From a virus (taxonomy: Duplodnaviria > Caudoviricetes), in IMG/VR virus record IMGVR_UViG_3300030095_004454, positions 1 through 37,298 of that record: 37,298 nucleotides of DNA. One strand, given 5' to 3'. Every line of letters begins with the position of its first letter. The stretch's first letter is position 1. This document shows positions 1-10,277 of the stretch, one piece after another. A program made the translations under genes and the position numbers. Under the pieces are notes generated by a model that made no database searches, had not been told where the DNA came from, and saw only the letters and a program-made list of their open reading frames with translations.

Positions 1-359
1 AAAAAGCAGATGAAATTCCTTTTGATGGTTGGACTCAATCAATGAATGATTACAGCCTATTCGTAAAGAGGATATGTAATCTAATAGGATATGATACTCG
101 CATGGTTGGTTATATTAAAGATAAGCAAATAAGTGCCAGAGCATATACTAATGGAAAGACTAAAATCACTTTTAATTTAGCACATTATAAAGGTGGTTTG
201 AATTTTGATCCCTACAATGAAGATAATCTGGGTACTATCTTACACGAACTAGCCCATCATAAGGTAGACGAAAAGCTGTCGCATGGAAGTGATTGGTATC
301 ACGAATTAGAGCGAATAGCCGGGAAATTCGTCAAACATCATCTAGTGAAATTAATGTAA
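1..359 (+). CDS. 5'-truncated protein with C-terminal zincin-like (HExxH) metallopeptidase motif
   Basis: Frame is open from position 3, upstream of ATG 42; motif TILHELAHH followed by HGSDWY, as in SprT/WLM-like domains. Confidence 0.6.
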   Translation, partial: KADEIPFDGWTQSMNDYSLFVKRICNLIGYDTRMVGYIKDKQISARAYTNGKTKITFNLAHYKGGLNFDPYNEDNLGTILHELAHHKVDEKLSHGSDWYHELERIAGKFVKHHLVKLM

Positions 360-6572: not shown

Positions 6573-7377
6573 TTTCCTTTCTTAAGTTGAATTGTACTCT
6601 AGGATTCCATTTTGCTTTCTGCTTATATCCACCATCTTTTGTCATATACTTATTTTGATAAATCTTAAGTATATCTATCCACATTTGAGGCTTTACTTGT
6701 TCTATCTTCAGCGAGTATGTAGGTTTCAATTTGAAGGAATCCTTAAGGTATAGCACAGCAATATGATCGACCTTGTAATCTGGATTTAATTCATTCCAGA
6801 GCATTGCATATGCATTACCTTGAATCATGTGACTATCTTGTTGAGAACCGGTCTTTATATCTAAGATAGTTCTTTGAGCTAAAGAACCTATCTCACAGAC
6901 TTCATCAGCCGTACCAGCAAATCCTAAAGATTCTGAATACATCTGATATTCACATTCTAAAAGTAGTGGCTTGTTATCCTCATAATACTGCATATACGAT
7001 TCAATGTACATGCAAATACTTCTGAGTAAAACACTCTTGCCACCACTCATGGCAATATCAATGATACTACAGTACCGAAATACTATATCTTTGATCTCGC
7101 CAAAACTTAATGTTTCACCATTTTTTAATTTTTCTACACAATAATGAACCGCAGTTCCTTTATTCGCTTTAAAGTTTCTATACCAATCAGCAAAGTGTCC
7201 GTAATTCTTTAGCCATGTATCAAAAGCATAACCTTTATTCATTACATTGCTAAGTACTGTAGTTACAGATGGTACTTTCAATGAGTCATGCCCCCTTAAT
7301 GAATAATATCTACCAAGAGTAGTTACATCTCTTTTAATTTTTTGATGGGTGAATGTACTTGGGTTAGGGTCTTTCAT
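6538..7377 (-). CDS. PD-(D/E)XK (RecB/Cas4-like) exonuclease
   Basis: PSVTTVL, GTAVH, FAGTAD, ILDIKTG, QGNAY motifs. Confidence 0.85.
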   Translation of the reverse strand: MKDPNPSTFTHQKIKRDVTTLGRYYSLRGHDSLKVPSVTTVLSNVMNKGYAFDTWLKNYGHFADWYRNFKANKGTAVHYCVEKLKNGETLSFGEIKDIVFRYCSIIDIAMSGGKSVLLRSICMYIESYMQYYEDNKPLLLECEYQMYSESLGFAGTADEVCEIGSLAQRTILDIKTGSQQDSHMIQGNAYAMLWNELNPDYKVDHIAVLYLKDSFKLKPTYSLKIEQVKPQMWIDILKIYQNKYMTKDGGYKQKAKWNPRVQFNLRKEIADVRLDAVEV

Positions 7378-7395
7378 CTATTCTCCTATATATAA

Positions 7396-7502
7396 AATCG
7401 GTTGCCAGACATGAATTGAGTGGAGGTTGTACCCAATTCGAATCTCATTGTGGTCATATGCGGAGGGTGATTAAGTCGAGATTTCTTAGCCGACAACCGA
7501 TT
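7396..7502. ncRNA. three-way structured intergenic element
   Basis: AATCGGTTG/CAACCGATT closing stem enclosing GAATTG/CAATTC and AATCTC/GAGATT hairpins. Confidence 0.5.
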
Positions 7503-7524
7503 AATAATTTGTGGTATTTTAGCT

Positions 7525-7713
7525 TTAAATGTTTGTGGTTTTTTGTGATATATATTTATCAAGTGATTCCTTTGGTATGCGGTAGGAGCGGTAACCTTGC
7601 TTTAAATAACCTATCTCCTTACTATGTATCATATCCAAAACACTCTGCCTATCTATCTTCAGTATTTCAGCAACTTCCGCAGTTGTGAAAAAAATATATT
7701 GCTCTGTATTCAT
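7525..7713 (-). CDS. excisionase/Cro-like HTH protein (start reassigned to ATG 7713)
   Basis: TTAEVAEILKI...GYRSYRIPKESL, HTH_17-type pattern; divergent from repressor. Confidence 0.8.
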   Translation of the reverse strand: MNTEQYIFFTTAEVAEILKIDRQSVLDMIHSKEIGYLKQGYRSYRIPKESLDKYISQKTTNI

Positions 7714-7759
7714 TATTATTGTTACTTTGTGTTTAATTATGATTAAATTAGTATGATGT

Positions 7760-7788
7760 AATTTAGTGGTAATTAGTGGCGTGTGCAA
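7760..7788 (-). promoter_or_regulatory. sigma70-type lytic promoter with candidate operator in spacer
   Basis: TTGCAC-17-TAAATT; spacer contains CCACTAATTAC. Confidence 0.55.
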
Positions 7789-7825
7789 TACTTTTAATTA
7801 GAATCGTTATAAATGGAGGTCTATA

Positions 7826-8614
7826 ATGGGAACAGACTTAGGAAATATGATAAGAGTTTTTAGAGAGTCTAAAGATTTGAGTCGAAAAGAGTTTTGTAAA
7901 GTAGTTGGTATAAGTACAAGTGGGTTAGCTTATTACGAGAAGGGTGATAGAGAACCATCGGGTAAGGTATTACATAAAATCAGAGAAGGGTTTAGTTTAC
8001 CAAATACATTTTTTACAAAAGAATCAGAGGGAGATATTAAAGGAGAACAATCAATGAATACACAGTTATATGAAGACCATATAAAATTACAAAAACGAGA
8101 AATAAGCAGATTGGAAACGGATATAGATCAGTTACAAGCGACATTGGAAAAATTGGATAAAAAAGAGCCAGAAGAGCATGTTTGGAATGAACTAAATTTT
8201 CATTTTATGGCAGACGTGGAGTTGCATTGGGACGCTTTTGGATTAAATATTGGTAGAACTATTACTAATGTTACCAATATTGAAAAACAATCTGAAATAT
8301 TAGGATATTCTACAAGCAAACTAGAACAGCTTTGGGATGTTGGAGTAAAACACAGAACGATGGACGACCATCCAATAAATTCAATATTACATCCTGAAAC
8401 AATTGAAAATATCAATAAGATTGCAATGTCTTTACCGGCCATGTTTGAAATGGTCAAAAAAATAGTTGGTAATTATTATATACCGAGCAAACTATTATAT
8501 GAGTGTAAGGATGGTTCTTTTATTGGAGGAATATCTTATAATAAAATTATTTGGAGCGAAAAGAAGGTTCGTTCTAAGGTGGAATATATAATCGAAACCG
8601 ATTTTAATCAGTAA
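7826..8614 (+). CDS. XRE-HTH repressor with coiled coil and PAS-like C-terminal domain
   Basis: LSRKEFCKVVGISTSGLAYYEKGDREP HTH; EILGYS, LHPE, KDGS motifs. Confidence 0.75.
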   Translation: MGTDLGNMIRVFRESKDLSRKEFCKVVGISTSGLAYYEKGDREPSGKVLHKIREGFSLPNTFFTKESEGDIKGEQSMNTQLYEDHIKLQKREISRLETDIDQLQATLEKLDKKEPEEHVWNELNFHFMADVELHWDAFGLNIGRTITNVTNIEKQSEILGYSTSKLEQLWDVGVKHRTMDDHPINSILHPETIENINKIAMSLPAMFEMVKKIVGNYYIPSKLLYECKDGSFIGGISYNKIIWSEKKVRSKVEYIIETDFNQ

Positions 8615-8630
8615 AGAGAGGAGGTATTTA

Positions 8631-9581
8631 ATGTATGGATTATATCAAAAACCTTCTGGAGTTTATTATTATTCAAAAGGAAGTGGGAAAAATCGTATAA
8701 GAAAATCTTGTCAAACTAAAGAAAAAAGAATTGCTAAAAAAAGAGCTAAAGAGTTTGATGAACTATATTGGAATTCAAAGGGTGTAATTAGAACAAAACT
8801 TAGCGTCTTAATAAAAGAGTATAAGGCGACAGTAGAACATTTAAAAGATGCTCGAGCTAATAAGCGTCATGTTGATAACTTTTTTAAGTGGCTTAAATCT
8901 GACCCAGATATAGATGAATTAAGACCAAGTGTATTTGACGACTATAAAAATTATCTGTTAACTGAGCTTAAACCAAAGGTCAACACCCCAAAGACAGCTC
9001 GTAATAAATTAATGGTATTAAATACGATGATGGATTATGCATACCATACAAAAGAGTATATAAATAGGAATCCGGTTAAAGGTATCAAGATGCCGTCAAA
9101 AAACGCAACAAACCCCAGAAGGCCAGTTCCTATTGAGGACATTAAAAAAGCGATAGCTGTAACCAATAATAGAAAAGATAAAATACTCTGGAGTTTATTA
9201 CTTTATACAAGTCTTCGGGTAAATCAAGCTAGTAACCTTACACCTAATCAAGTTAAGCAAGGTATTATTCAAGCAAAAAGCAACATACCTAAACCAATAC
9301 CCCTTCCAGACCACATACTCGCATTTGGCGATGAAATATATAACATATATCCAAATTCAAATTACTATGGTGATAGTAGAAAAAGGTATCAAAAGATCAT
9401 GAAAAGTTTTGGTTATGATACTGACTTCCATTCAATCCGACATAGTGTTACTACTCACTTAGCTAAATCTGGTATGAGCGAGGCCGATATAAAGAACATC
9501 ACCGGCCATGATTCTAAAGCCGTTAAGACCTATATACACATGGGTACTGATGATTTTGCTAACCTCATTGATAAAATATAG
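8631..9581 (+). CDS. int: tyrosine integrase
   Basis: TSLR, HSIRH, TGH, Y catalytic residues; N-terminal arm-binding-like region; GGAGG RBS. Confidence 0.92.
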   Translation: MYGLYQKPSGVYYYSKGSGKNRIRKSCQTKEKRIAKKRAKEFDELYWNSKGVIRTKLSVLIKEYKATVEHLKDARANKRHVDNFFKWLKSDPDIDELRPSVFDDYKNYLLTELKPKVNTPKTARNKLMVLNTMMDYAYHTKEYINRNPVKGIKMPSKNATNPRRPVPIEDIKKAIAVTNNRKDKILWSLLLYTSLRVNQASNLTPNQVKQGIIQAKSNIPKPIPLPDHILAFGDEIYNIYPNSNYYGDSRKRYQKIMKSFGYDTDFHSIRHSVTTHLAKSGMSEADIKNITGHDSKAVKTYIHMGTDDFANLIDKI

Positions 9582-9760
9582 GGTGACACATTTAAGGGGT
9601 GACAGAATGGTGACACATTATGCACCCAAATAGCATAGAATGAACTACAATGACAGTCTCGTTTTAGAGGGAAAACAAGTAAAAGCCTCGTGGAGAGAGA
9701 GGGATTCGAACCCTTAATGCTCCCTCAGTAAATAATTAAAAGTGACAGATAGGTGACACT
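9581..9760. mobile_element. attP with tRNA-Ser 3'-end core and arm-type repeats
   Basis: Core 9692-9714 reads AGGGTTCGAATCCCTCTCTCTCC on - strand; GTGACA at 9583, 9599, 9610, 9742, 9753. Confidence 0.85.
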
Positions 9761-9769
9761 AGTTGCGTC

Positions 9770-9830
9770 CTAATAATAAAAAAACCCTCAATAAATGGAG
9801 GTTACCAAATTTCGAGGGTTTTATTATTAG
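9770..9830. terminator. bidirectional terminator-like hairpin with anti-RBS loop on - strand
   Basis: CTAATAATAAAA(AAA)CCCTC / GAGGGTTTTATTATTAG arms; 24-nt loop. Confidence 0.75.
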
Positions 9831-9881
9831 CATTACTGCTATTCTCAACCCTTTAATATAAGTTAAACTACGGCATAAGAA

Positions 9882-10277
9882 CTAATCAATTCTTTCTATA
9901 TGAACTAAATCCATAAAGGTTTGATCGGTGATATTTCCATCGCTATCCCAATCAGCTCCAGACCTAATTTTTATATCCATCATGTGAGCAATGCCTCTTA
10001 ACATACCAGCCATATAATAGTGACGCTTTATACCCATTTTAGATTTCATATCAATCGGGTAGGGCGATAGATCAAGTGCATCGCCAGTAAGATGCTTTGA
10101 CTTCATTGTTTTAGATGCACCGGTCTTTACATAGTCTCTTTGTTTTTCGATAGAACGTACACCTTCAATAATGGATATATCCATTAAATGAAGACATTCC
10201 TCTACTACCTTAACTAAATCGGGATGAACACCCTTGAGTCTTCTTCGAGAGCGTTTCCCAAATTTGTACTTAGCCAC
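9882..10277 (-). CDS. endolysin, M15 family peptidase
   Basis: LKGVHPDL, EGVRS, SKH..GDALD, DLVHIE. Confidence 0.9.
   Translation of the reverse strand: MAKYKFGKRSRRRLKGVHPDLVKVVEECLHLMDISIIEGVRSIEKQRDYVKTGASKTMKSKHLTGDALDLSPYPIDMKSKMGIKRHYYMAGMLRGIAHMMDIKIRSGADWDSDGNITDQTFMDLVHIERID

Follow-up and report, generated by a model that had tools for sequence, protein, structure and literature searches.

The C-terminal part of a probable phage immunity repressor, predicted to adopt a PAS fold, is a cassette exchanged by recombination among related phages. It is well supported that this is a real PAS-tailed protein with an exchanged input domain, encoded at the position of a CI repressor. The protein comes from an IMG/VR whole-virus record of 37,298 bases (the window, meaning the entire stretch of DNA that was analyzed), which is estimated to be 96% complete and has 35% G+C. 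The record contains genes for a terminase, a P22/SU10-like portal, an SU10-type capsid, a tail fibre, and an endolysin, and its capsid and integrase relatives are ≤33% and ≤23% identical, respectively, and give no information on the host. Marine metagenome runs carry near-identical DNA (at least half of the words in 4 of 21 runs, among the matches listed, of which one may be the source), and there was no RNA run among the matches listed. The window phage is likely a temperate marine phage.

The regulator and its predicted PAS domain

The regulator gene (7826..8614, plus strand) is a single intact open reading frame of 262 aa, encoding an XRE-type helix-turn-helix (HTH), a heptad helix, and a predicted PAS domain. 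The HTH (aa 9 to 54; 7850..7987, plus strand) matches Pfam HTH_3 with an E value of 2.7e-11, and its structural matches include C.AhdI, SinR, and P22 c2 (Z of 8.9 for the latter). A 35-residue helix follows (aa 78 to 112; 8057..8161, plus strand), which is a predicted coiled coil by the structure model and by its heptad pattern (the best of seven registers has hydrophobic residues at 8 of 10 a/d positions). Behind it lies the exchanged cassette, assigned from the structure model and from relatives as a predicted PAS domain of type T1 (8168..8611, plus strand), with an N-cap helix at aa 115 to 122 and a core at aa 127 to 254. The original prediction had proposed an N-terminal XRE HTH, which was borne out, and a coiled coil at about aa 80 to 112, which corresponds to the single predicted helix. 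The motifs that it quoted (EILGYSTSKL, SILHPET, and YECKDGSFI) are all present in the translated reading frame. A homodimer prediction for aa 113 to 262 gave a median of 0.35 against a mark of 0.42 and carries no weight here. In three loci of relatives the HTH and PAS parts are split or frame-shifted (L010:9029-9827, L004/L030, where the reading frame ends at 207 aa, and L037:9645-10433); assembly errors, defective genes, and programmed frameshifting are all conceivable causes.

A Pfam scan of the full protein returned seven families at E≤1, none of them PAS, and aa 115 to 262 alone matched no Pfam family at E≤0.01, no NCBIfam model, and nothing convincing in PHROG. Because no Pfam PAS model matches the regulator, the PAS call rests on structure. 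An AlphaFold2 model of aa 115 to 262, built from a 75-row alignment, had a pLDDT of 91.0 and a pTM of 0.84 (the whole protein had a pLDDT of 90.5). Its elements run strand-strand-helix-helix-helix-long helix-strand-strand-strand, and it has the five-stranded antiparallel sheet with helices C to F between strands B and G that defines a PAS fold. Foldseek with this domain found 20 PDB matches at E≤0.001 (top E value of 1.5e-4), and all those among the matches listed are PAS or LOV domains. A Foldseek search with the full-length protein likewise had PAS domains as its leading matches. A Foldseek-independent search of 48,161 chains gave seven chains at Z≥8, the best being 3h9w (Z of 9.2, rmsd of 2.8, 103 residues aligned). 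From their titles and what is known of the entries, we take the best 50 rows of that search to be PAS or LOV domains or PAS-bearing sensors throughout. The background of this aligner is at Z 7 to 8, so a Z of 9.2 is just modestly higher, and it is the unanimity of both structural lists that carries the call. The C-terminal domain is thus predicted to be a PAS fold, as the original prediction had proposed for AlphaFold and Foldseek to check; what emerged was neither a non-PAS fold nor a cryptic S24 domain. TM scores by query of 0.36 to 0.50 suggest a divergent PAS domain that has a longer helical region and no close solved relative.

Relatives were collected by a HMMER scan of aa 115 to 262 against 1.84 billion representatives, which yielded 67 proteins at a cutoff of E≤0.001. 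These are 225 to 285 aa long, except for shorter, probably partial records and one 1993-aa repeat protein (P0051), which was dropped as spurious. The lengths indicate that, at that sensitivity, no fusion to longer sensor proteins is seen. PDB sequence searches with the regulator returned HTH matches only, as did a search of cultured phages, in which eight records matched. An Atlas search with the regulator's own domain gave no usable match (the Atlas model had a pLDDT of 0.50).

Conservation was scored over 95 family sequences with less than 80% identity. The original prediction had recognized a PAS signature of three stretches. Two of them, LGY (84, 94, and 85%) and YxxKDG (91, 94, 57, and 73%), are conserved, but the HPED-like stretch is not: H189 is kept in 17%, and P190 is outside the top four residues of its column. 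This HPET stretch sits at the canonical helix junction, yet it is no family signature. Invariant polar residues are R144 (97%), H182 (93%), and Y225 (91%), and positions 235, 237, 239, and 250 hold small residues. From strand alternation and the usual PAS register, these polar and small residues would line the helix-ward face, as a pocket needs. The presumed pocket residues are matched in invariance by K211, K240, K251, and W243, and in the same strand register K240 and K251 would point outward, as at a protein interface. No Cys column exceeds 22% in the 95 sequences and the LOV motif is absent, so this is no LOV or Cys-cluster PAS domain. H182 directly precedes a short helix (aa 183 to 187) and is at most a candidate for the conserved His ligand of heme-binding PAS domains.

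Position opposite the early operon

The regulator gene diverges from an excisionase-family HTH_17 gene of 62 aa (7525..7713, minus strand; TIGR01764 E value of 2.2e-13 and HTH_17 E value of 2.6e-14), which is the first gene of a divergent early operon that continues with exonuclease and replication genes (PHROG exonuclease and DnaD-like matches). An AT-rich spacer of 112 bp (7714..7825) separates the divergent genes and is expected to hold promoters and operators. Operator searches of the locus, including a palindrome survey, found none, and none was shared within HTH classes. The 150-bp gap between the excisionase and exonuclease genes contains an imperfect 20-nt inverted repeat (7396-7415/7483-7502), possibly an RNA structure or attenuator, for which Rfam had no match.

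On the other side, a tyrosine integrase gene (8631..9581, plus strand; PF00589 E value of 3.1e-10 and phrog_1 E value of 1.3e-35) starts 16 nt past the end of the regulator gene and is likely cotranscribed with it. Three 11-nt direct repeats follow (family D2, 9582..9619), which are likely arm-type sites of the integrase, and a second arm-type set (family D1, 9742..9758) lies on the opposite side of a 25-nt att core (9690..9714, minus strand) that reads as a tRNA 3' end. By its anatomy, the core flanked by direct repeats is likely attP. It is identical to the 3' end of a stretch in L121 that resembles tRNA-Ser(GGA), and two relatives of the window phage, L003 and L005, have kept it. The arm-type repeats (9582-9619 and 9742-9758) show one- or two-base differences between these three phages. 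Since they vary while the att core is constant, the arm specificity of the integrase seems variable too. A 25-nt inverted repeat with A/T tails (9774-9829) lies between attP and the end of the endolysin gene and is likely a bidirectional terminator.

We also surveyed this layout in relatives. An integrase (PF00589) was found in 29 of 34 carrier records and in all six that are ≥90% complete; the five records without one are 20 to 57% complete. Among 81 distinct loci, searched with an integrase profile seeded from 12 of those same loci, the integrase is directly behind the regulator in 47, elsewhere in the stretch in 13, and not seen in 21. One HTH class has no adjoining integrase (L007, L017, L026, L029, L046 to L048, L062, L085, L086, and L100), and neither do L010, L027, and L035; where an integrase was seen in this subgroup, it is 9 to 10 kb upstream. 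ParB-like genes lie downstream of the regulator in L010 and, weakly, in L026. Motifs of tRNA 3' ends occurred in 61 of 138 loci (a count that includes duplicates and short loci and has no shuffle control), and these att cores match the 3' ends of several different tRNAs. They are a ready bait set for assigning hosts.

Seven short divergent open reading frames in relatives, picked by eye as Cro-like, all match HTH_3, which points to a cI/cro/xis layout in those seven loci. The regulator is the sole HTH_3 match of the window genome. Its being the only HTH_3 gene, its divergence from the excisionase gene, and the nearby integrase and attP suggest that it is likely the immunity repressor, an assignment well supported by position. 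That it is a repressor with a PAS fold we consider highly probable.

The PAS part is exchanged by recombination

Up to the coil, L003 and L005 share 96.8% identity across 5,992 nt, and from the integrase onward they share 95.1% across 3,158 nt. Between these two matching blocks lies the C-terminal domain, in which their sequences do not align. Their regulatory neighbourhoods differ in the PAS part only, and no small gene nearby was exchanged with it. The window phage is 75 to 80% identical to both over longer blocks. It shares their HTH class and att core and carries a third domain type.

Three domain types (T1, T2, and T3) occupy this one slot behind shared HTHs, and searches with the exchanged domains gave 10 matches for T2 and 24 for T3. 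HHalign identified T1 and T2 as homologues (98.3%, E value of 2e-14) and linked T3 to neither (0.5% and 1.4%). T3 matches PAS_3 weakly in 16 of 21 members, with a best E value of 0.0011, below the curated cutoff, and its comparison with Atlas PAS_3 clusters gave a feature score of 0.94 and TM scores of 0.74 to 0.76. T3 thus looks like a standard PAS_3 domain, and the slot holds two sequence-unrelated kinds of PAS domain. Our alignments A2 and A3 omit 12 of 87 proteins (near-duplicates, fragments, P0051, and three T3 proteins) and keep three T2 proteins.

We compared HTH and C-terminal domains in 93 full-length proteins (4,278 pairs). Different domain types follow HTHs that are ≥70% identical in 37 pairs, one of them at 100%, and the converse, domains ≥75% identical behind HTHs ≤30% identical, occurs in 121 pairs. 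T3, for example, stays at 76% identity behind HTHs that share 24%. Mixed domain types were found in 9 of 15 multimember HTH clusters, and HTH and C-terminal identities are uncorrelated (r of 0.01 to 0.18).

Both flanks are ≥85% identical in 15 locus pairs, and eight of these are near-clonal throughout. In the other seven, from four independent groups, the domain drops to 72 to 79% identity or does not align. Two exchanged groups keep the HTH, and in the group of L017, L046, and L047 the whole gene was exchanged. The pS/pN values in exchanged pairs are 0.40/0.17 and 0.63/0.28 for the domain and 0.15/0.05 and 0.16/0.02 for the HTH. Since synonymous and nonsynonymous differences rise together, the domains seem to have been imported by recombination while purifying selection acted on them; nothing points to positive selection. 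In four public runs the contigs were too fragmented for an exchange joint to be seen.

Possible inputs to the repressor

The original prediction noted no recognizable S24 motifs in the regulator, and we indeed found no S24 peptidase, either in the protein or in any of 47 carrier records. ImmA/IrrE-type M78 was likewise absent from all 47, and neither family occurs in the 12 near-complete records. As positive controls, 14 genomes were scanned, of which nine matched S24 and seven matched M78. Scans of 59 open reading frames of the window found no known antirepressor family. A 105-aa reading frame with an HExxH motif (42-359, plus strand) has weak matches to M60/WLM metallopeptidases (E values of 0.026 to 0.056); it is not in the M78/ImmA family and is a remote candidate for a repressor-cleaving protease. 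A search of 7000-9900 with general SOS-box motifs, which may not fit the host, found none. Repressors that lack a peptidase can still respond to SOS when another gene supplies an antirepressor or peptidase (PMC10432266), so the loss of S24 alone would be compatible with SOS control through an antirepressor. The suggestion that a small molecule or partner, in place of RecA cleavage, may govern lysis-lysogeny therefore holds for autocleavage, but it does not extend to SOS control as such. Since relatives have exchanged the PAS tail, a wake-up cue other than self-cleavage is likely.

The regulator resembles lambda CI, P22 c2, and LexA-type proteins (HTH_3 plus Peptidase_S24, PF00717) in its XRE HTH, its size, its two-domain build, and its position opposite the early operon. 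Those proteins carry an S24 domain with a Ser-Lys dyad, whereas here there is a long heptad helix and a predicted alpha/beta PAS domain, and it is the C-terminal domain that is exchanged in this family. The original prediction drew an analogy to VqmA of phage VP882, which with Qtip is likewise a phage-encoded PAS and HTH system tied to the lysis-lysogeny choice. VqmA has an N-terminal PAS domain and a C-terminal HTH and activates the antirepressor gene qtip, and a separate cI coexists with it (10.1101/2021.04.15.439952; PMC12802170). The analogy stands insofar as both are phage PAS regulators, but it is loose, because the domain order is reversed, with the PAS domain C-terminal on the likely repressor itself, and VqmA is an activator. 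PDB searches with the regulator found no sequence match to VqmA.

MmyB/MltR (PDB 3pxp) shares the order of an N-terminal Xre HTH and a C-terminal PAS-related domain. MltR ranked 23rd in a full-length Foldseek search, with a poor overall fit (TM score of 0.25 and rmsd of 19.5), and neither an MmyB-type Pfam model nor a PDB sequence match of this kind was found for the regulator. MltR has a short extended linker (residues 81 to 91) and is chromosomal, mostly in actinomycetes (PMC3406030), whereas the window-phage regulator joins its domains by the 35-residue helix. The regulator belongs to neither VqmA nor MmyB/MltR. SaPI Stl is another modular XRE repressor without autocleavage that has separable DNA-binding and input domains, and it is inactivated by helper-phage proteins (PMC6695447); structure and sequence searches with the regulator matched just its HTH. 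A BFVD match to Cellulophaga phage phi19:1 gp108 (identified by protein length; L119:4203-4925) is a protein of 240 aa that has a hydrophobic stretch and, by this match, resembles PAS domains in its C-terminal part. We rejected it as a repressor, as it has no HTH and lies near a lysozyme gene.

Our preferred mechanism, to which we give somewhat less than an even chance, is that the PAS domain of the immunity repressor binds a host small molecule and thereby switches DNA binding through the coil, in place of RecA-triggered self-cleavage. The repressor would form a dimer through its heptad coil and bind the 112-bp spacer, where it would shut off the early operon and autoregulate its own and the integrase message. 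The PAS domain would take up the host molecule, and this signal would pass down the coil to the pair of HTHs, causing their allosteric release from DNA. Granted a repressor with a PAS fold, small-molecule input is about an even bet. It is supported indirectly by the recruitment of PAS domains to the slot twice, by the invariant polar residues that would line a cavity, and by the failure to find a known antirepressor or protease. There is precedent in MltR, an XRE and PAS-like protein with a fatty acid bound (PMC3406030), and the PAS domain of VqmA binds DPO and also dimerizes (10.1101/2021.04.15.439952; PMC12802170). Counting against it are the absence of a conserved Cys or LOV motif, the probable outward position of K240 and K251, the negative operator searches, and the HTH class of 11 loci without an adjoining integrase.

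The PAS domain might instead be a docking site through which a small phage antirepressor or a host protein disrupts the dimer, as in Stl, with SOS dependence possible and with domain exchange altering which partner is recognized. We judge this rather unlikely, though much is consistent with it. Inactivation by an antirepressor or peptidase encoded elsewhere is common for peptidase-less repressors (PMC10432266), and in Stl the specificities for DNA and for the partner reside in different domains (PMC6695447). The uncoupled HTH and C-terminal identities and the mixed types within HTH clusters would also be expected, Y238, K240, and K251 are conserved and probably outward facing, and the window has many small unnamed reading frames besides the HExxH protein. 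An arms race over a protein partner would account for the frequent exchange no less well than the sensing of a fixed metabolite would. However, no known antirepressor family or M78 protease was found, and L003 and L005 differ in the PAS part without a co-exchanged small gene nearby; the negative SOS-box search also speaks against docking, weakly.

A purely structural role, in which the PAS domain replaces the C-terminal domain of CI as a module for oligomerization and cooperativity, appears quite improbable. Exchange would then be neutral mosaicism or reflect self/nonself dimer pairing between coinfecting phages, and induction would be stochastic or through host proteolysis. PAS domains often serve dimerization and can act purely as dimerization modules (PMC3406030), the pS/pN pattern shows purifying rather than positive selection, and the conserved coil is a natural crossover arm. 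Yet the coiled coil would suffice for a dimer, two unrelated kinds of PAS domain were recruited to one slot, and the conservation of T3 across dissimilar HTHs exceeds what a passive spacer needs. Finally, it is very unlikely that the regulator is an activator or fine-tuner of integrase and excisionase expression with VqmA-like logic, the true repressor being another, unrecognized protein: the sole characterized phage PAS regulator is an activator, 34 of 81 loci lack an integrase directly behind the regulator, and the operator searches were negative, but the regulator is its genome's only HTH_3 gene, no carrier record has an S24 repressor, several relatives have divergent Cro-like and excisionase genes, and the HTH falls into distinct classes, much like immunity specificities.

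One of T3's structural neighbours in the Atlas is a cluster of 796 proteins of 233 aa (PAS_3 in 65% and Phage_CI_repr in 58%), which suggests that proteins with a CI-type HTH and a PAS domain far outnumber the relatives sampled here. Its commonest recorded phylum (26 members have one) is Fidelibacterota, the former Marine Group A/SAR406 (PMC11652737), a weak hint to the host of the wider group. A single GTDB match, L037 in a Porticoccaceae MAG, was set aside as host evidence, being a phage-sized contig of 39.6 kb in a MAG without the window att core. We offer only as a speculation, and a doubtful one, that a large group of temperate phages in the sea, probably infecting SAR406/Fidelibacterota, carry one-component repressors that respond directly to a host metabolite and whose HTH heads (immunity type) and PAS tails (wake-up cue) are shuffled independently.

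The XRE plus PAS architecture (MmyB/MltR, PMC3406030) and phage PAS signalling (VqmA, 10.1101/2021.04.15.439952; PMC12802170) are already known. Our literature search, in which subscription journals were thinly covered, so that prior annotation is possible, found no paper on a PAS-bearing phage repressor. A term search of a 2026 review of SOS-independent induction (PMC13760530) found no passage on PAS domains, and PMC9782041 has none either.

The natural combinations of HTH and PAS domain are ready controls, and chimeras would separate immunity from inducibility. The PAS domains are small and soluble and could be purified and screened without culture of the host. Many ocean lysogens probably do not respond to DNA damage, and a repressor with a sensor bears on how marine prophages come to be induced. 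Having the sensor domain on the repressor itself would connect cell state to lysis by the shortest possible route, with a simpler circuit than VqmA-Qtip or arbitrium. If the small-molecule reading is true, coresident prophages would respond to different chemical cues without SOS, an antirepressor, or a signalling peptide.
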